From NCBI GenBank assembly GCA_052327205.1, contig CM126211.1, forward strand, positions 179,180,001 to 179,244,000: a stretch of DNA of 64,000 nucleotides, given 5' to 3'. This stretch comes from Somniosus microcephalus (Eukaryota). The stretch's first letter is position 1, and each line of letters starts with the position of its first letter. Shown piece by piece: positions 7,201 through 43,200 of this stretch. The notes below the pieces were generated by a model. That model was not told the origin of the DNA. It did no database searches and worked only from the letters and a program-made list of their open reading frames with translations. Both the position numbers and the translations under genes were made by a program.

Positions 7201-10200
7201 ATTACTACCTGAGCCACGTGCAAATTAGCATAGGGTAAATAAGATCAGAGAGATGAACAAGTGGCTCAAAGATTGGTGTGGGAGAAATGGGTTTCGATTC
7301 TTGGGGCACTGGCACCAGTATTGGGGTAAGAGGAAGCTGTTCCCGTCAGGACTGGCTTAATTTGAACCAGGCTGGGACCAGTGTCCTGGTACATCCTGGG
7401 GGGTTACCATTGATCAGAAACTGAACTGGACCAGCCATATAAATACTGTGGCTACAAGAGCAGGCCAGAGGCTGGGAATTCTGCGGCGAGTGTCTCACCT
7501 CCTGGCTCCCCAAAGCCTTTCCACCATCTACAAGGCACAAGTCAGGAGTGTGATGGAATACTCTCCACTTGCCTGGATGAGTGCAGCTCCAACAACACTC
7601 AAGAAGCTCAACACCATTCAGGATAAAGCAGCCCGCTTGATTGGCACTCCATCCACCACCTTCAACATTCACTCCCTCCACCACCGGCGCACTGTGGCTG
7701 CAGTGTGTACCATCTACAAGATGCACTGCAGCAACTCGCCAAAGCTCCTTCAACAGCACCTTCCAAACCCGCGACCTCTACCACTTAGAAGGACAAGGGC
7801 AGCAGACGCATGGGAACATCACCACCTACAAGTTCCGCTCCAAGCCACACACCATCCTGACTTGGACCTGTATCGCCGTTCCTTCACTGTCGCTGGGCCA
7901 AAATCCTGGAACTCCCTTCCTAACAGCATTGTGGGTGTACCTACACCATATGGACTGCAGCGGTTCAAGGCGGCGGCTCACCACCATCTTCTCAAGGGCA
8001 ATTAGGGATGGGCACTAAATGCAGGCCTAGCCAGCGACGCCCACATCCCATCAATGAATTTTTAAAAAAGAATCGAATAACTAGGGCTGTAGATAGGGCT
8101 TTAAACTAAATACAGGAAACTTTGTGCTATCCGGCACCGAGCTGTTGCCGTTCCCTCAAAACCGCTGGACACTCCAGCGCTAATGTTGAAACATACGGAG
8201 ATTTTCAGCTCCGTGTGAATCAACAAACCCTGTTGCTTAGCAACAGCTTCTAAACAGTCGGCAAGCGTCTCTAGCTGAAGCTGTTGCTTAGCTACAGACC
8301 TTGCAGAGCTTGACTGTTGAGGAAAAAAGCAACGAAAAGAAAAAAAACAGCTCCTGATTTTTGCCGGTGGCTCGAGCTTGCTGGACATTTAGCCTCCGGA
8401 TAACACAAAGTTTCCTGTAGTGGGGGGGGGGGGGGGGGGGGGGTGGGTCTGCTGAGCGGAAATTTAAAAAGTCAAAGAAAAATGAGAAGGCAAAAGTGCA
8501 GGGTAGCGATAGGGGTAATAATAACCAGAGTGTGACAGGAAGTGACAGAGCATATACACACACGAGTGTATCAGAAAGAGGGGTCGGAGTAGGGAAAAAT
8601 GGTAAAAAGACAAAATTAAAAGCTCTATATCTGAACACACGCAGCATTTGTAACAAGATAGATGAGCTGACAGCACAAATAGAAATAAATGGGTATGATC
8701 TGATAGCCATTACAGAGACGTGGTTGCAAGGTGACCAAGGCTGGGAACTGAATATTCAGGGGTACTTGCCATTTCGTAAGGATAGCCAGAAAGGAAAAGG
8801 TGGTGTGTAGTTCTGTTAATAAGGGATGAGATCAGTGCAGTAGTGAGAAATTATATTGGCTTAGAAGATCAAAACGTAGAGTCAGTTTAGGTGGAGATAA
8901 GAAATAATAAGGGTAAGAAGTCACTGGTGGGAGTGGCCTATAGGCCCCCAAACAGTAGCCACACTGTAGGACAGAGTATAAATCAAGAAATAATAGAGGC
9001 TTGTAAGAAAGGTACGGCTAAAGTCATGGGAGATTTTAATCTTCATATTGATTGGACAAAGCAAATTGGCAAAGGTAGACTTGAGGAAGAGTTCTTAGAG
9101 TGTATGCGGGATGGTTTCTTGGAACAATACGTTGTGGAACCAACCAGGGAGCAGACTATTTTAGGTCTGGTAATGTGTAACGAGGCTGGATTAATTAATG
9201 ATCTTGAAGTGAAGAGTGATCATAACATGGTAGAATTTCAAATTCAGTTTGAGGGTGAGAAAGTTAGGTCTCAAACTAGTGTCCTGAACTTAAATAAAGG
9301 TAATTACAAAGGTATGAAGGCAGACTTGGTTAAAGTGGACTGGGAAAATATATTACAGGGTAAGACTGTAGAAAAGCAGTGGCAAACATTTAAGGAGATA
9401 TTTCATAACTCTCAGCAAAGATATATTCCAGTGAGAAAGAAAGACTAAGAGAAGGATGAACCATCTGTGGCTAACTAAGGAAGTAAAGGATGGTATCAAA
9501 TTGAAAACAAAAGCATACAATGTTGCGAAGAATAATGGAAGGCCAGAGGATTGGGGAATTTTTAAAAACCAGCAAAGCACGACTAACAAAATGATAGAGA
9601 GATAGAAGATAGCTTATGAGAGTAAGCTAGCAAGAAATATAAAAACAGACAGTAAGAGCTTCTACCGGTATATAAAAAGGAAGGGAAGAGTAGCTAAAGT
9701 AAACATTGGTCCCCTAGAGGATGAGTCTGGGGAATTAATAATGGGAAACAGGGAAATGGCGAAGACTTTGAACAAATATTTTGTATCGGTCTTCACGGTA
9801 GAAGACACTAAAAGCATCCCAATAATGGATAATCAAGGGGCTATTGGGGTGGGGTGGGGGGAAAACTTAAAACAATCACTCTCACTGGAGAAAAAGTACT
9901 AGGCAAACTAATGGGACTAAAGGTGGACAAGTCCCCATGACCTGCATCCGAGGGTCTTAAAAGAGGTGGCTGCAGAGATAGTGGATGCATTGGTTGTAAT
10001 CTACCAAAATTCCCTGGATTCTGGAGAGGTCCCAGCAGACTGGAAAACTGCAAATGTAACGCCCCTATTTAAGAAAGGAGGGAGACAGAAAGCAGGCAAC
10101 TATAGACCAGTTAGCCTAACATCTGTCATTGGGAAAATGTTGGAGTCCATCATTAAGGAAGTGGTAGCAGGACATTTGGAAAATCATAATATAGTGAAGC

Positions 10201-31200: not shown

Positions 31201-34200
31201 TTTAAGATGAAAATTAACTTTATTTTAAAAGGACACCTATAAATCATTAAGTCTGATCATTTAACATGCAAAATTAGTAAAAATTGTTTTTTTTAAAATC
31301 AATTGCAAAGCTAGATATCATTTTTAACATTTTACTCAGCATACCTCAAGCAATGTGTAATTGAAGTGTTCTGCTCCACATCAACAGAAAGGTCTAAAAA
31401 GTCTTCATCTTTGCTACTTACCTGTGAAGTAGGGACAATTTAAAATTACTAATAGCAGGAAGCAGTAATACAATAATCTGAAAGCAGTTTATGATGAAAT
31501 ACAACATACGAATGTAATAAGAGATTTATTCTTTCTGGGACTGCAGTGGATAGTTTAAATGAATAGAAATGTGATTCCGTTGTTAAAGCAAAAAAGAAAA
31601 CCCAAAAGTGGTTATTCAAACTGCGTCAACCACACATTTAAAAGGGAATTCAAGAAAAAAATTAAAGAATATGGGGAAAGAGCAAGGAAATAAGATTATG
31701 ATTATGATATTCTGATGTGGAGCTAGCACTGGCACAACGGATCAAATGACATCCTCCACAGTTCAAGCTACCACAGACAATGAAAGGAGTGGAAAATAAA
31801 AGCTAATTACTACTGTTATATAGCAAATTAGTCACAATATGTTGTTGACATTCCCCCCCCCCAAAATTTCCTTGTATTTTGAACAAATTCAACATGATTA
31901 CAAGACTTACAAATAATAAAGTTGACAAATTTTGAAATCATTAAGTTTGTTGAATGCTGAACTTACAGTTTCACAGTTAAGACATCTGGTTTCATTAGTT
32001 AATGTTCCTTGAAACATCTCATGCACCCAGGTTGGTTCCGGTATGTCATTGCCATTGCCATTGTCATCATTAATACAGCCATTATGTAGCTGTCCATTTT
32101 GTTTTTCCTGCTTTTTCTCTTCCTGCAGGATATCAGCAATGGTGTTTAACAAGTAGTTCAGGAACTCATGAGCATCTTGTTGCATGTAATTATCAAAAAG
32201 TTCTGAAATAAAAAACAGTTAAGATGCGTGTGAACAATTTTGTCTGTATTAATAGGGAGCATAATATATGCTGCAATACAATTCCAATTAGAACAAGCTA
32301 CTCAATTTAGACTACAAGAGGCCCCAGAGGCTCAGGTAGGCCTCAGTGCGGTATCGGCAGCGGGTGGAGGTGGAGCAGCGCGACTACAAGAGGTCCCAGA
32401 GGCTCAGGTAGGCCTCAGTGTGGCATCAGCAGCGGGTGGAGGCGGAGCAGCGTGGCAGAGCGACAAGAGGCCCCAGAGGCTCAGGTAGGCCTCAGTGCGG
32501 CATCGGCAGCGGGTGGAGGCGGAGCAGCGCGGCAGAGCGACTACAAGAGGCCCCAGAGGCTCAGGTAGGCCTCAGTGCGGCATCAGCAGCGGGTGGAGGC
32601 AGAGCAGTGCGGCAGAGCGGCTACAAAAGGCCCCGGAGGCTCAGGTAGGCCTCAGTGCAGCATCGGCAGCGGCGGGAGGCGGAGCAGCGCGACTACAAGA
32701 GGCCCCAGAGGCTCAGGTAGGCCTCAGTGAGGCATCGGCAGGAGGCGGAGCAGCGCGACTACAAGAGGCCCCAGAGGCTCAGGTAGGCCTCAGTGAGGCA
32801 TCGGCAGCGGGTGGAGGCGGAGCAGCGCGACTACAAGAGGCCTCAGAGGCTCAGGTAGGCGTACCAATCTCCAATCTCAGGCAAGGAGAGAGGTAAAAAG
32901 TATTCAAGGTGTGACGTCACCACAAAACAGGTAGGTGATTGGTTGGAGTATTTCTCTCGTTTTAAAACTTTAAGTCTGTGGTTTATAGTTTTAAGGTTGC
33001 TGTGGTGTACCAAGGCCTTTCTGGTGCAGAGTGACTGTTGGTAAACCATTTAACTGGTGTAACTAGAGGGATTGATTTAATTTAAATCCAATTAATTAAA
33101 GGGGATACCAGCATCTAAAATCAGGCAGAGGGTGTCCATAGCTAACAATAAAAAATTTAATTAATTACATAGAATGGAGCAGGTGATGTGTTACTGTTGC
33201 AAGATGTGGGAGCCGGTGAACCCCATTGAGGCTCACGGTGATTACGTCTGTGACAAGTGTCTGCTGCTACAGGAACTCCAGCTCCGTGTTGATGAGCTGG
33301 AGTCTGAGCTTCAGACACTGTGACACATCAGGGAGGGGGAGAAGTACCTGGACTCTGTGTATCAGGAGGTGGTCACACCCATGAAGTTAAGTAATTCAGA
33401 TGTAGCCCATGGTCAGGGACAGGACGGTGTGACTACGAGTGAGGCAGGTACGGGGATCCAGTCGGTAGAGCTGGAGGAGCCGCAGCCCTTGCTCTTGACC
33501 AACAGGTTCGAGGTTCTTACTCCCTGTGGGGACAGGAGCAGGGACTGCAGGGAGGATGAGCAACCTGGCCACAGCACCGTGGAACGGGGGGCCATTCAAG
33601 AGGGGGGAGTAAATAGAAATGTTGTAGTGGTAGGGGATAGTATTATTAGGGGGATAGATAGAGTTCTCTGCAGCCGAGAGCGAGAGTCCCGAAGGCTGCG
33701 TTGCCTACCCGGTGCCAGGGTTAAGGACATCTCCTCTGGGCTGGAAAGAAACTTGCAGTGGGAGGGTGTGGATCCAGTTGTTGTGGTCCATTTTGGTACA
33801 AACGACATAGATAGGACTAGGAAGCCGGTTCTGTTAAAGGAGTATGAGCAGCTAGGGGTCAAATTAAAAAACAGAACCTCAAGGGTAATAATCTCTGGAT
33901 TATTACCCGAGCCACGAGCGAATTTGGCTAGGACAAATAAAATTAGAGAGTTAAATGCGTGGCTCAAAGACTGGTGTGGGAGAAATGGGTTTTGCTTCCT
34001 GGGACACTGGCACCAGTACTGGGGCAGGAGGGAGCTGTTCCGTTGGGACAGGCTTCACTTGGCCAGTGCTGGGACTAGAGTCCTGGCGGATCATATAACT
34101 AGGGCTGTAGAGAGGGCTTTAAACTAACTAGTGGGGGGGAGGTTCCTAGAGAGCAAATAATAAAAATGACAACAGAGAAGGTCATAGGCTTAGGTAGCAG

Positions 34201-37200
34201 TGGGGAAATTAAAAACCAGAGCGTGTCAGGAAGGGGCAGAAGGTATGGAGTAAAAGGTAAAGTAATAAAAAGGGCAAAAGCAGGAACTAAGTGTCACAAA
34301 ACATATTTGAAAGTTCTCTATCTGAATGCACGTAGCATTCGTAACAAAATAGACGAGTTAATGGCACAAATAACTACATATGGGTATGATCTTGTGGCCA
34401 TTACAGAAACATGGCTGCAGGGTGACAATGCCTGGTAATTAAACATACTAGGTTATTTAACGATCAGGAAGGACAGGCAGGAAGGAAGGAAGGGGAGGTG
34501 GGCTGGCTATGTTAATACAGGTAGACTATCCTTTATCCGAAAACCTCGGGACCAGCCGTGTTTCGGTTTTCGGAAAATTTCAGAAGGTGGGTCGGCGGGG
34601 GTCGGGGTCGGCGGGGGTCCGTGGGGGCGGGGGTCCGCGGTCGTGGCTTGTCCGTCGCTGCTAGCCTGGAATGCAATGAAGTTCCGCATTTCCACCAACA
34701 GGTCGTCATGCTCGGTCGGAACAGGGGCCGGCACCGCCGCGGGCTCAGAGCTCTCGTTGCTTTCGAGCCTTTGGAAGAGAGTCAGGTGGTTCCGCGGGGG
34801 GGTCGGCGGGGGGTCGTGCGCACGACTTACGCTGACCCTCTGCTCAGTGTAAGTCGTGCGCCACTCTGGTCATGTCGTGCGCACGACTTACGCTGACCGA
34901 AAAAACCTTCGGTTTTTAGAGGGTTTCGGTTTTCGGAAGTTCGGATAAAGGGTAGTCTACCTGTAAAGGAAGGAATCACTGTAATACAGAGAAATGATAT
35001 TGGGTCAAAAGATCAGGATAATGAAACAGTTTGGGTGGAGGTAAGGAATAATAAGGGGAAAAAAACTAGTGGGCGTAGTCTATAGGCCTCCGAACAGTTG
35101 CAACTCTGTTGGACGGAGTATCAATCAGGAAATAGTTCAGGCTTGTAATAAGGGAGCATCTATAATTATGGGGGATTTAAACTATCATATTAATTGGACA
35201 AAGCAAATTGGGCAGGGCTGCCTTGAGGATGAGTTCATTGAGTGTATTATGGTTGGGTTTCTTGAGCAGTATGTAACTGAACCGACCAGGGGGCAAGCAA
35301 CCTTAGATCTGGTCCTGTGTAACGAGACAGGATTAATTAAAAATGTCCTAGTAAAGGATCCCCTTGGAATGAGTGACCATAACATGGTTGAATTCCATAT
35401 TCAACTAGAGGGTGAGAAGGTTGGATCTCAAACAAGCGTGCTAAGCTTGAATAAAGGAGACTATGAAGGTATGAGAGCGGAATTGAGTAGAGTGGATTGG
35501 GAAAATAGATTAAAGGGTAAGACGATACATGATCAGTGGTGTACATTTAAGGAGTTATTTTACAACTTCCAAAAAATATATATTCCACTGAGAAGAAAAG
35601 GGTGTAAAAGAAAAGACAGCCATCCGTGGCTAAGTAAAGAAATTAAGGATAGTATTCGACTAAAAACAAGGGCATATAAGGTAGCCAAATCTAGTGGGAG
35701 GATAGAGGATTGGGGAAACTTTAAAAGACAGCAAAAAATAACAAAAAGATTGATTAAGAAAGGGAAGATAGATTATGAAAGTAAATTAGCAAAAAATATA
35801 AAAACAGATAGAGAGAGTTTTTATAGTTATATAAAAAGAAAAAGGGTGGCTAAAGTAAATGTTGGTCCCTTAGAGGATGAGACCGGGAAATTAATGGTGG
35901 GAAATATGGAGATGGCAAAAACACTGAATGAATATTTTACATCAGTCTTTACAGTAGAGGACACCAAGAATATCCCAACACTGGACAAGCAGGGGGCTAT
36001 GGGGGGGGGGGGGGGGGGGGGGGAGGAGAAAAACACGATCAAAATCACTAAGGAAGTGGTACTCGGTAAAATAATGGGACTCAAGGCGGATAAATCGCCT
36101 GGACCTGATGGCTTACATCCTAGGGTCTTGAGGGAAGTGGCGGTAGGGATTGTGGATGCATTGGTAATAATTTTCCAAAACTCCCTGGACTCAGCAAAGG
36201 TCCCGGCAGACTGGAAAACTGCTAATGTAACGCCCTTATTTAAAAAGGGCAGTAGACAGAAGGCTGGAAACTACAGACCGGTTAGCCTAACATCTGTGGT
36301 AGGTAAAATATTGGAGTCCATTATTAAGGAGACAGTAACAGGACATTTGGATAATCATAATTTAATAGGACAAAGTCAGCATGGTTTTATGAAGGGGAAG
36401 TCATGTTTGACAAATTTGCTGGAGTTCTTTGAGGAAGTAACATATAGGGTGGATAAAGGGGAACCAGTGGACATAGTGTATTTAGACTTCCAAAAGGCAT
36501 TTGACAAGGTGCCACACAAAAGATTATTGCTTAAGATAAAAAATCACGGGATTGGGGGTAATATTCTGGCATGAATAGAGGATTGGCTATCTAACAGAAG
36601 GCAGAGAGTTAGGATAAATGGTTCATTCTCGGACTGGCAATCGGTAACTAGTGGTGTTCCACAGGGGTCAGTGCTGGGTCCCCAACTCTTTACAATCTAT
36701 ATTAACGATTTGGAGGAGGGGACCGAGTGTAACATATCAAAGTTTGCAGATGATACTAAGATGGGAGGGAAAGTAGTGAGTGAGGAGGACATAAAAAACC
36801 TGCAAGGGGACATAGACAGGCTAAGTAAGCGGGCAGAGATTTGGCAGATGGAATACAATACTGGAAAGTGTGAGGTTATGCACTTTGGCAGGAAAAATCG
36901 TAGAGCAAGTTATTATCTTAATGGCAAGAAACTGGAAAGTACTGAAGTACAAAGGGATCTGGGGGTCCTGGTGCACGAAACTCAAAAGGTTAGTATGCAG
37001 GTGCAGCAAGTGATTAAGAAGGCCAATGGAATGTTGGCTTTCATTGCTAGGGGGATAGAATATAAAGATAGGGAGGTATTGCTTCAGTTGTACAAGGTAT
37101 TGGTGAGACTGCACCTGGAATACTGCATACAGTTTTGGTGTCCATACGTAAGAAAAGACATACTTGCTCTCGAGTCAGTACAAAGAAGGTTAATCCCGGG

Positions 37201-40200
37201 GATGAGGGGATGGACATATGAGGAGAGGTTGAGTAGATTGGGACTCTACTCATTGGAGTTCAGAAGAATGAGAGGCGATCTTATTGAAACATGTAAGATT
37301 GTGAAGGGGTTGGATCGGGTGGATGCGGGGAGGATGTTCCCGATGATGGGTGAAACTAGAACTAGGGGGCATAGTCTTAGAATAAGGGGCTGCTCTTTCA
37401 GAACTGAGATGAGGAGGAACTACTACACTCAGAGGGTGGTAGGTCCATGGAATATGCTGCACCAAAAAGCTGTAGAAGCTACATCATTACATAAATTTGA
37501 AACAGCAATAGAGTTTCCTAGAAGTAAAGGGAATAAAGGGTTATGGGGAGCGGGCAGGAATTTGGACAGGAGTCTAGGTTCGGATCGGTCATGGCCCTGT
37601 GGGTAGCGGAGCGGGCCCAGGGGCCCTGTGGGTAGCGGAGCGGGCCCAGGGGCCCTGTGGGTAGCGGAGCGGGCCCAGGGGCCGTGTAGCCTGATCCTGC
37701 TCCTATTTCGTGTGTCTAATTCTGTTAGATTCAGGAGATGGTTCTGTGATAGTAGATTGGCGGTTAGGATCAGATCAGCCATGATCTTATTGAATGGCGG
37801 AGCAGGCTCGAGGGGCCGATTGGCCTACTCCTGCTCCTATTTCTTATGTTATGTTCCTAATTGTGATCTTTACACTGGTATCCGCGTAATAAAATAGTAG
37901 ACTTATCGAAGCTATCAGCCAATTCCAGTAATCAAAATAACAGAGGGTGATGTGGGAGTGCCAGAGAATGAGTCCAGGATTGTCAGCCTTCAACACATAC
38001 TGAAAGTAAATTGTACTGAAACAATGTAATGCCTTCTCATGAAAAGTGTAACAGTGCTATGTTCTGGAAGCGTCTGATATACCATGACAAGATAATTTTG
38101 CTTTCAGTCAGTGTTTGGCTCAGGGAAGTACTGATTTCAGCAGCCATGTCGCTGAAGTGGAGGGAAAGAATGTTTTGGTAGAAGTTTGTGATCCAGGAGC
38201 AAATAAGGGATGAATATTTTGGAGCGTTGAGGTTCAGAACTTTCCCTCAGGAAATTAAATGTCCACGATGGGACTGATGGTGGCACATGAAAATTTCACA
38301 GCCCCATTTAAGGGGATGAGAATTTTAAATTTGTGGTTTGAGGGATCAGAATCCAATGTAGGTCAACAATGGCAATGTTGATGGGTGAGCAGGACTTTGT
38401 GCAAGATAGGATATGGGCAGCAGAGTTTTGATGAGCTGATGTTTACGCAAGTTGAAAGATTGGACTCTGGCCGGAATAGCATTGTAATAGTCAAGTCTGG
38501 AGATGACAAAGACATGGATGAGGGTTTCGGCAGCAGTTCAGCTGAAGTATGGGTGAAGACCAGCAATGTTACAGTACTAGAAGTAGGCAGTCTTTGTGAT
38601 GGAAAGAATATGGGGTCGAAATCTCAGCTTGAGTTTGAAAAGGACCTTATGTCAACACCTTCAGGAAAGGTGGAGGAGAGAAAACAAAAGAAAATTGAAA
38701 ACAAATGAAACATTGTTAATTATACAAAGACAGTCAAACTGTTTTTCCATTCAAGAATTACAGTACTGATATTCCATAATATTCAGATAATCTGTATATG
38801 CTGTGATTTATTTTCTAATTATTATGCCATCCAAATATTAAAATCATTAATTAAGGGGAAAATAGAATATGAGAGTAAGCTTGCAGGGAACATAAAAAAC
38901 TGACTGTAAAAGCTTTTATAGATATGTGAAGAGAAAAAGATTGGTGAAGTCAAGCGTAGGTCCCTTGCAGTCAGAATCAGGGGAATTTATAATGGGGAAC
39001 AAAGAAATGGCAGACCAGTTAAATACATATTTTGGTTCTGTCTTCACAAAGTAGGACACAAATAACCTCCCAGAGATGTCGGGGAACATAGGATCTGATG
39101 AAAGGGAGGAACTGAAAGAAATCAGTATTTGTAGGGAAATGGTGTTCGGGAAATTGATGGGATTGAAGGCCGATAAATCCCCAGGGCCTTATAATCTACA
39201 TCCTAGGGTACTTAAGGAAGTGGCCCTAGAAATAGTAGATGCATTGCTGATCATCTTCCAATATTCGATGGAATCTGGAACAGTACCCATGGATTGGAGG
39301 GTGGCTAATGTTACCCCACTATTCAAAAAAGGTGGTAGAGAGAAAACGGGGAATTACAGACCGGTAAGCCTGACATCGGTAGTGGGGAAAATGCTAGAGT
39401 CCATTATAAAAAATGTAATAGCAGAGCACTTGGAAAACAGTGACAGGATCTGACAAAGTCAACATGGGTTTACAAAAGGTAAATCGTGCTTGACTAATCT
39501 ACTGGAATTTTTTTGAGGATGTAACTGGTAAAATAGATAAGGGAGAACCAGTGGATGTGGTGTATTTGGACTTTCAGAAGGCTTTCGATAAGGTCCCGCA
39601 TAAGAGATTAGCGTGTAAAGTTAAGGCACATGGGATTGGGGACAAGGTATTGACTTGGATAGAGAACTGGTTGGCAGACAGAAAGCGAAGAGTTGGAATA
39701 AACGGGTCTTTTTCCGAGTGGCAGGCAGTGACTAGTGAGGTACCGCAGGGATCGGTCCTTGGACCCCAGCTATTCACAATATATATTAATGATCTAGACA
39801 AGGGAACTAGATGTAATATCGCCAAATTTGCAGACTACACAAAGCTGGGTGGGCGTGTGTGCTGTGAGGAGGATGCCGAGAAACTCCAGGATGATTTGGA
39901 CAGGTTGGGTGATTGGGCAGAAGCATGGCAGATGCAATATAACGTGGATAAATGTGAGGTTATCCACTTTGGTGGCAAAAACAGGAAGGCAGATTATCTG
40001 AATGGCAATAGATTGGGAGAAGGGGAAGTGCAACGAGACCTGGGTGTCCTTGTGCACCAGTCGCTGAAGGTAAGCATGTAGGTGCAGCAGGTGGTTAAGA
40101 AGGCAAATGGTATGTTGGCCTTCGTAGCGAGAGGGTTTGAGTACAGGAACAAGGATGTCTTGCTGCAGTTGTACAGGGCCTTAGTGAGACCACATCTTGA

Positions 40201-43200
40201 GTATTGTGTGCAGTTCTGGTCGCCTTATCTGAGGAAGGATGTTCTTGCCATGGAAGGAGTTCAGCGAAGATTCACCAGGCTGATCCCTGGGATGGCAGGA
40301 ATGACGTACGTGGAGATATTAGGTCGATTGGGCTTGTACTCGCTGAAGTTTAGAAGAATGAGAGGGGATCTCATTGAAACTTATAAAATTCTGACAGGAC
40401 TGGACAGACTAAATGCAGGAAAGATGTTCCCGATGGTCGGGGAGTCCAGAACCAGGGGTCACAGTCTAAGGATAAGGGGTAGGCCATTTTGGATAGATGA
40501 GGAATTTCTTCACCCAGAGAGTGGTGAATCTGTGGAATTCTCTACCACAGAAGGCAGTAGAGGCCAATTCATTAAATATATTCAAGGAGTTGGATATATT
40601 TCTTAAGGCTAAAGGGATCAAGGGGTATGGGGAGAAAGCAGGGACCGGGTACTGAATTTGGATGATCAGCCATGATCGCATTAAATGGCGGAGCAGGCTC
40701 GAGGAGCCGAATGGCCTACTCCTGCTCCTATCTTCTATGTTTCTATGTCAGAATACTATTGCAAGGCAAAAAAATGGACAAATTGTTAGCCTTCTCCATG
40801 TTGACTTGCCCAACATTTACCTACCTTACAATGATCAACCATCTCCACTCATTTTGTTAGGTGCCCCTAGTGTCAGCATTTAAAATCACTGAGGTCTTAT
40901 CAGACTGAATGGCCTGGATTTTGCGGTTGTAATGCTGGTGAAACTGTCAGCGTTCGCCGTCATTACTCTGTGAAATTGACAGCAACTTCTGGCATCCGCA
41001 CGTGCAGTTAAACACGGAAATTGAGAAGCTGCTGTCAGTGATTCCCTGCTCCTCCACAGGGTGCACTGTTGAAGTCCCCGCAGACGGAAATCTTTAAAAA
41101 AAAATCACTTGATTTGACGTGAATTCAGCTTTTTACGCTCTATTCTCGCTGTAAAAACCCTTAAAAGATTTAAGCCTTGTTTAATGAGGTGTAACTGATT
41201 TTAACGGCGTATTAAGTCATAATTACTGCTGAAAAACCTCTCTGGCCCCCCCCAAAAAATTTTTAATTTTTATATGTGACGTCTCATTTCCTACATTACA
41301 TGATAAAATTCCGTGATTTTTAAAATAATAAAAAAAAAAATTACATTTATGATATTTCAGCTTCTACCTTAATCCCATGTGTATGGCCCAATCTTTATTT
41401 GGCTCACTGTAAAATTATTAAAAAGTAAAGGATAATCAGTGCATTTTATTTCCTGTCTGTGAGAATTCTTCAATGTGATTGACTGCTTAGCCTGTTTGAT
41501 GACATCACTGATCACTGTTGCTGGACGCCAGAATGAAATTAACGTTGGGAAAGGTGAAATCCAAGCCACAGAGATCGCTAGATCCTTGTGGACAACTTTT
41601 TTTCTTTTTTGAGGTCAGCGGCGAGCGTCGTCACTTTGCTCCTCTCGCAAAATCCGGGCCATTACATCTTTGACATTTGTTCACAAATTAGACTGATCTA
41701 GCTTCCCTTGTTTAAAAATCTTACCATTTTCTTTTCGTAGTCTTGTTATAAACTTTTTGGGAGGTATTACACCAACTTTCTTCTTTTGTGTAGCTATATT
41801 GTGGAAGAGATCTGCCAAGCACGTGAGTAGGTTTTCCTTTCTCCTGGGCTGATTCTTGTAGGCTAGAACTTTCTCTCGAAATGGACGGCAAAAATAAAGT
41901 GCCTGAAGGACTGAATTACAGTAGCAGGTATTCCCAAACTAATAGCACAAGAGAGGACAAAACAAGTTGAAGTCAGTCACAAGGTAGATCCAAAAACAGT
42001 TCAGGAAAATAAAAAAAACAATACTTTGGATGCTGATAATCTGAAATAAAAACATTTTCTGTTTTTAAATTCAGAAAAATAAAACTTTTTACGCAATTGT
42101 ATGAATAAATGATCAGAACTTCCTAGTCATTCTGACGTGATACCAATTTTAACAGATATTTTATCTATTAAGCAAAATGTTATCCTGTAACTTTTTGTTG
42201 TATCTTCCAACCCAGGTAGCGTTAGAGTACAAAAGTTATTTTTTGTTTTAAAATAACTAGAGGTACTGTTACATATTACTGTGTGTACATGCACAAAAAA
42301 AATTATCAAATTATTCTTCAATTTTGTAAGTTTCAGAATTATTTTAAAATTGGGCCAGAATTTCCTGAATCTAACATACGCAAAAATTGTATCAAAATTT
42401 AGGCCGGTTTCTGCGCTGATATTGCCGACAGGAATTTGCACCCAAATTTCCTATGAAGCTTATTTGCTTATGTTGGAACGTAAAAGTCGTGAAAATGAAC
42501 ACAAACACTGCCACAAATAGGAGAAATATATCGGCCTGCTGTTTTCTGCCACGTCCCCTCACTCTGAGCCTCTTGCTTCTGCCATTATGTAAAACTGGGG
42601 AATGCCCAATGGGAAGGCAACTAAATTGATTAATCCTTTTGAAGGGGGTGGGTGGGGTTTGAAAATTTTCAGGTGCACGGAGGCTTGACAGCTCTTTGGT
42701 TAAGTATAGTGCAGGCTGCAGTAGGAATTTTTTAATAAAAGACTGCAGAAAAAATTGCGATCAAACTCAAGAAATCTCAGTTATGCTGATATTAGGTGAC
42801 CTCAGGCCGTGCTGCACCTAAATGTTTGCACATAAATCTACAGCAGTGCATTATTCGTGTAAACCCAAGAACCCGAGTTGTTCTTTTGCATGGGAGCCGA
42901 GCTATGTAAATAAAAGGCAGAACACTTGGGGGAGGTAGTGCAAGTGATCATGGACATTTGAGCATAGCATATTTCCGCATAAAACCACCGTAAATCAATT
43001 ACATAGAAATTGCCTCCAAACAAATGGTGCAACTCCGTTCTTGCACCATAGTTATGCCGAATCTTTCCAGGAATTTCCTGGCCATTCTGTACAACTATTG
43101 ATTTTCCAGCCTGGAACCAATTAAAATCAAAAATCAGCTCTATAGGTAAATATTATGTACTTAACATAAACCATCTGGTCTGTTTTAAGAAAAAAAATCA

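Follow-up and report, generated by a model that had tools for sequence, protein, structure and literature searches.

An element of 446 bp at positions 34518-34963 of the window (the whole stretch of 64,000 nucleotides analysed here) carries 160 bp of the DNA-repair gene ERCC6 (CSB). The element belongs to a non-autonomous transposon family that targets TA, and about 500 copies with this cargo exist. The piece of ERCC6 was probably gained once by a template switch, was then probably spread in trans, and most likely rides as neutral cargo.

The element is non-coding and is bounded by 24-bp terminal inverted repeats (TIRs; 34518-34541 on the plus strand and 34940-34963 on the minus strand). It is flanked by a duplicated TA at 34516-34517 and 34964-34965. 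Both features had been described in the earlier note. Together with the TA, the two ends (34516-34541 and 34940-34965) are 26 nt long and 96% complementary. The left TIR is followed by a subterminal segment (34542-34583, plus strand) and by a GC-rich repeat array (34584-34633), the length of which varies from copy to copy. The captured fragment (34634-34793, minus strand) comes from the last coding exon of ERCC6 and corresponds to the start of the C-terminal winged-helix region; the splice site, start and stop of the host exon are all absent. On the opposite side of the fragment, a second GC-rich repeat array (34794-34812) precedes a module (34813-34898) that contains two 25-bp direct repeats, their cores palindromic, and an inverted 18-mer, and then the right subterminal segment (34899-34939, plus strand). 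Within the module, positions 34833-34845 are likely a remnant of an older cargo taken from an antigen-receptor intron, as suggested by comparison of subfamilies. With its 24-bp TIRs, TA duplication, small size, high copy number and lack of transposase, the element has the traits of a MITE.

A stop-free reading of 52 codons is present on the minus strand and, in the window copy, no in-frame ATG lies upstream of it. This frame had been placed at 34794-34639. The 52 codons were found; the host-derived run is 34793-34634 (160 nt), and the first base of the first codon is derived from the element. The 52-codon peptide matched residues 1396-1447 of human CSB (E 2e-11) and shark ERCC6 proteins at 83-94% identity (nine shark entries among the 20 homologue matches). 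All named matches among these 20 were ERCC6 and sharks ranked first, the best at 94%. A Pfam search with the 52-aa peptide alone gave no match; full-length relatives carry PF25875. In the genome itself, the part of the ERCC6 last exon downstream of the fragment gave a single match (C29:24237644-24237781), and element and host exon agreed over 157/163 nt without a gap. The ERCC6 identity of the fragment, which the earlier note had suggested checking by sequence search, was thus established at both the protein and the nucleotide level. The captured run is a central part of the last coding exon and lacks its acceptor as well as 46 codons and the stop.

From sharks to mammals, ERCC6 retains the cargo stretch in frame (seen in human, marsupial, coelacanth, ray and shark), which indicates that the transfer went from host to element. 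The opposite direction, in which the ERCC6 exon segment would derive from the transposon, is practically excluded: two related Tigger-type MITEs do lie at ERCC6, one about 70 bp past its stop codon and one farther upstream, but the in-frame conservation refutes it, and the element version carries a derived D-to-N change. An alanine is common to host ERCC6 and the element, in a motif that the 20 other proteins fetched do not show, which fits a capture from the host within this lineage. The nearest recognised TE was located about 205 bp downstream of the parent stretch, the upstream side being exon. No founder copy and no element of the same family was found in about 93 kb around the exon. The MITE in the ERCC6 3' UTR (L031:1105-1430, minus strand) is about 325 bp long, is flanked by TA and has ends 84-87% like those of the autonomous 2.4-kb Tigger family. 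The other related Tigger-type MITE (L225:1950-2342), located inside ERCC6 upstream of the second-to-last exon found, has internal modules in common with older subfamilies of the element family studied here.

An exact 31-mer of the ERCC6 fragment gave 347 genome matches. A 30-mer with at most two mismatches gave 501, including the host gene (258 forward and 243 reverse; 0 for the control). The fragment is present in about 500 element copies. Ninety loci were fetched; one locus without the core motif was dropped and the rest corresponded to 63 distinct elements. Both TIRs were found in 62 of the 63, and 58 of these 62 had a TA on both sides, with flanks that differed. Sampled elements were 414-1015 bp long (median 500), their target preference was roughly palindromic around the TA, and the fragment junctions were identical across copies. 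The two TIRs, the TA on both sides and the shared junctions point to one capture followed by mass transposition. Apart from the element-derived first base, three differences in 156 nt are fixed between element copies and host. At the first diagnostic site, the host-type base occurs once in the genome, in ERCC6 itself, and the alternative base was present in 56/56 copies, which indicates one founder.

That the fragment was inserted into a single element after landing, or was spread by segmental duplication or gene conversion, is hardly credible. Single-copy gap fills are what most described animal Pack-TIRs are, according to PMC8277862. Here this reading is refuted: the copies number in the hundreds, lie on many contigs in unrelated flanking sequence and have a TA on both sides. 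The fragment is therefore multicopy cargo with shared junctions, not the one-off that the earlier note had named as the alternative, and its proposal that a non-autonomous element took host coding DNA and moved it agrees with a single host source, about 500 copies and separate TA sites. Mean divergence of the sampled copies from the column majority was 0.9%, a low estimate, as the sample was chosen for close match; true divergence would be about 1.2%, given 347 exact matches of about 500. The description of the fragment as recent holds in relative terms, with about 1% divergence among copies and 3/156 fixed differences from the host. Some elements hold the ERCC6 fragment twice in tandem (L063/L064 at C1:36199955, and pairs on C2 at 146.387 Mb and 60.696 Mb), probably as a result of unequal exchange between GC arrays. 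Contigs of organisms A and C also cover the fragment; pieces crossing the junction had fewer than 31 letters on one side, and the junction between element and fragment is only tentatively regarded as shared between species.

For the capture itself, the following route is proposed. Repair or replication would have stalled in the element interior, which is rich in hairpins and GC repeats. The nascent strand would have switched to ERCC6 at a 3-bp microhomology (34791-34793) and returned at a 5-bp one (34634-34638), and a related Tigger-type transposase would have mobilised the chimera. An earlier gain of about 200 bp, from the intron of a NAR-like V-D-J cassette, may have occurred in the same way, most of it being deleted later. 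The junction motifs GGA (3 bp) and GCGGA (5 bp) are common to the host exon and the GC unit of the element, which suggests template switching. With random breakpoints, at least 3 bp were shared in 4.9% of trials and at least 5 bp in 0.5%; the joint value of about 5e-4 is rough, as it concerns one event and assumes the donor array. Template switching in the element interior is also the route proposed for multicopy Pack-TIRs (PMC8277862).

Alternatively, ERCC6 mRNA or cDNA may have been copied into the element, by a LINE reverse transcriptase or by RNA-templated repair, and then amplified. The piece is indeed purely exonic, lies within one exon near the mRNA 3' end, and CR1-type LINEs are abundant in this genome. 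We consider this route unlikely, however: the piece has no poly(A) and no target duplication of its own, it ends inside coding sequence with microhomology at both ends, and the other traced cargo of the family is intronic. A template switch on DNA is thus preferred.

This other cargo is a segment of about 200 bp carried by an older branch of the family; part of it was present in 25 of 75 sampled elements. It is also found outside any element, about 330 bp past a J-like segment with a recombination-signal-like heptamer and nonamer and a splice donor. This context recurs at 22 paralogous cassette loci on C4. The V exon upstream encodes a V-set domain with shark VNARs as its best solved relatives, and is flanked on both sides by further V-set exons. 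We take this V-set/J cassette layout to be that of NAR-TCR. The best identity between cassettes and element copies was 87% over 206 nt, and no near-identical source was found; in the approximately 3.5 kb fetched per locus, no family TIR was found either. In the host, the segment leads directly into a long 21-bp minisatellite, and two units of this repeat are retained in the element, which favours transfer from host to element; the intronic position of the segment favours a DNA template. In the tree, 12 element copies were placed apart from 19 host rows (100/99), with weak nesting among the host paralogues (66/88). The second segment is likely, although not proven, to be an earlier capture in the same lineage from the intron of NAR-like V cassettes. 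A protein-coding origin of this segment was rejected: a 12-frame Pfam search gave two chance-level matches only, 0/31 candidates scored in the homologue search, and the segment was traced to the intron. An initial boundary search gave nothing beyond further subfamilies and an unrelated repeat motif. On C4, NAR-like V-D-J cassettes number at least 22, at about 20.3-41.9 Mb (L295-L316) and at 81.4 Mb (L317-L318); the intron after J matches the older cargo and contains the 21-bp minisatellite in variable length.

The TA and TIR together gave 9,582 exact matches genome-wide. ERCC6 cargo was present in 6/85 elements (about 7%) among the first 100 TIR matches listed, and cargo-free subfamilies outnumber the carriers. 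Inside, family members are a patchwork of GC arrays, palindromes, internally nested TIR ends and stretches shared with other repeats; tandem, inverted and TE-TE rearrangements occur throughout. Three elements (L034, L040 and L197) were found that share the left module and the GC arrays of the carriers, lack ERCC6 and are slightly longer at the right end. In some family members (L044/L045, L092 and L094), other repeats have inserted in nested fashion, which brings their length to 1.2-4.5 kb. Short AT-rich internal segments seen in some subfamilies (L099, L199, L214 and L219) are possible further cargo.

A pogo/Tigger family of 2.4-2.5 kb, with DDE_1 and HTH_Tnp_Tc5 domains and long ORFs, is abundant in the genome and, judging from its copies, may have been active recently. 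Several subfamilies were distinguished (L142-L191), the youngest copies being 96-98% alike with ORFs of 570-660 aa. The 3' end of this family aligns to the left TIR and subterminal segment of the element with a score of 49 (mean 15.8 and maximum 35 in 2000 shuffles); the TIRs are related, non-identical. The element ends may also resemble Tigger4/MER46. The Tigger/pogo assignment made in the earlier note is favoured by the TA duplication and by the likeness of the ends to the DDE_1 and HTH_Tnp_Tc5 family; its weaker side is that no autonomous element with the same TIR was among the 50 DDE_1 matches examined out of 150 (150 scored of 1,700 candidates), all 50 belonging to one related family. Mobilisation was likely in trans, by a transposase of pogo/Tigger type.

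In the window, the element is inserted into a LINE encoding an SGNH-esterase ORF1 and an APE-endonuclease ORF2 (part examined, 33324-36574, plus strand), the ORF2 endonuclease being split by the element. From this layout, the LINE is presumably of CR1 type. Empty CR1 sites with a single TA, in which 34515 is joined to 34964, were found in 535 and 540 RNA reads and in 6 and 3 contigs. These many uninterrupted copies demonstrate the clean insertion into CR1 ORF2 that had been proposed. The region between the two catalytic-domain exons of USP12 found by PDB matches (32182-41935, minus strand) encloses the element; the best matches of the exons were USP12 (E 2e-30), then USP46 (E 6e-28). The element thus lies in a USP12 intron, with minus-strand exons on either side, and the ERCC6 fragment is in the sense orientation relative to the USP12 pre-mRNA, as had been noted. 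This orientation need not carry any meaning, the fragment being found genome-wide 258 times forward and 243 times reverse. The fragment also keeps its CpGs, as stated earlier (observed/expected 1.09, versus 0.37-0.40 in the flanks). The element plus flank at 34521-34968 (plus strand) has GT...AG ends, and its removal would take 448 nt, in frame, from CR1 ORF2. Six RNA reads fit this joint; natural CR1 variants could explain them. Another MITE of a related Tigger family, about 305 bp long and flanked by TA, is located at 8111-8419 of the window, apparently in another CR1 just past the ORF1 stop.

Coding changes in 56 copies were 25 synonymous and 51 non-synonymous, versus 28.7 and 47.3 under neutrality (p 0.41); the power of this test is low, with 76 changes in copies picked for close match. 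No stop codon had arisen in the 56 copies and the frame was kept in 57/62, as expected at about 1% divergence. An in-frame ATG was present inside the element in 7/62 sampled copies. CpG positions changed about 6-fold faster than others in the 56 copies, so that the copies look methylated. In two RNA runs of organism B, RNA over the fragment was 94-100% one-stranded and RNA over the element backbone came from both strands. Reads may stem from host or element; those over the fragment are most simply explained as host mRNA. Opposite-strand reads over the fragment were few (4 of about 63 at 34708, in one run). Most likely, the ERCC6 fragment rides as neutral cargo, with no selection for protein apparent in the sampled copies.

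A functional cargo, which would help the element escape silencing or yield antisense or small RNA acting on ERCC6, appears very unlikely. The share of the family that carries the piece, the near-identical CpG-rich copies on both strands and the few opposite-strand reads speak in its favour. They are outweighed by the apparent methylation, the neutral coding changes, the larger number of cargo-free subfamilies and the strandedness of the RNA, which is that of host mRNA, the opposite-strand share being possibly library leakage. A broader view is only slightly less improbable, namely that shark Tigger-type MITEs are serial gene-fragment carriers at a plant-like scale, and that the methylated ERCC6 copies, about 500 in number and lying on both strands, direct antisense or piRNA-type silencing at ERCC6 or shield the element. 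If true, it would represent a transposon-host epigenetic conflict at a core DNA-repair (single transcription-coupled-repair) gene in a vertebrate. The family offers a natural and dated setting in which to ask whether a donor gene becomes silenced through its captured fragments. A practical consequence is that repeat masking, read mapping, primer design and counts of duplicated DNA-repair genes in sharks can be misled by about 500 near-identical pieces of ERCC6.

The element works like a multicopy Pack-TIR and shares the following biological features with that class. Its ends are the termini of one TIR element (in the window copy and in 62/63 sampled). The host piece lies within 100-5000 bp, with at least 90% identity to the parent and a length ratio of 80-120% (160 bp, 157/163 nt, gapless). 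The parent is unambiguous, a single ERCC6, and has no TE within 100 bp. One chimera is found at several loci with separate target duplications (58/62; 501 matches). In a whole-element genome search, sister copies ranked above the ERCC6 parent; the ranking of a unique parent is a detection filter and not a biological feature. As described in PMC8277862, the multicopy Pack-TIRs of animals are likewise TIR elements with an internal host fragment (median 224 bp, versus 160 bp here), and animal Pack-TIRs also show junction microhomology, a distant parent locus, GC-rich cargo and several rounds of transposition, each into a target site of its own; many of the carriers are TcMariner elements (115/370). 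In the same text, Tan et al. (2021) report four multicopy families in 100 reference genomes (three in frog and one in alligator), the example shown has three copies with 5' UTR cargo, and elephant shark, the sole 'shark' row, has 0 Pack-TIRs. Here, in contrast, there are about 500 copies, a coding exon and a likely second, older cargo. The Pack-TIR pipeline demands a unique top BLAT match (PMC8277862), so high-copy cases were likely missed and part of this gap is one of ascertainment. This suggests that standard Pack-TIR screens may miss the most successful cases. The statement of the earlier note that vertebrate gene capture is sparsely reported has to be narrowed: capture by TIR elements had already been described (PMC8277862), and what stands out is the copy number. 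The literature outside subscription journals, Repbase and Dfam yielded no published account of this element, nor of any Tigger MITE that bears coding cargo on such a scale. ERCC6, MITE and Tigger occur 0 times in the available portion of a preprint on shark genomes and their DNA-repair duplications (10.1101/2024.09.09.611499).

Pogo/Tigger-derived MITEs resemble the element in their TA duplication, 24-bp TIRs starting with CAG, lack of coding capacity and thousands of copies. Its interior differs in that it combines host DNA with GC arrays and stretches of other repeats and is not a deleted version of the autonomous family that was found. Plant Pack-MULE and Pack-TYPE elements belong to other superfamilies and have longer target duplications. 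They are also non-autonomous TIR elements that shuffle pieces of host genes, in plants (PMC5861414, PMC8903248). Among vertebrate DNA transposons, the gene-capturing Helitrons of bats amplify host gene fragments, with 28-1,381 copies for non-5' regions (PMC4224331), and those of Xenopus reach up to 17 copies of one CDS piece (PMC12001565). Unlike the element described here, these Helitrons are rolling-circle elements without TIRs or TA duplication and show a bias to capture of 5' gene ends (PMC4224331, PMC12001565). The comparable or higher copy numbers of the bat Helitrons indicate that high-copy capture was already known in vertebrates for rolling-circle elements (PMC4224331). The present case is a real, high-copy and probably neutral variant of known TIR capture. 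Whereas vertebrate families with TIR-mediated gene capture had few copies, a coding exon is here present in hundreds, and the lineage has likely made an earlier capture as well, from an antigen-receptor locus.
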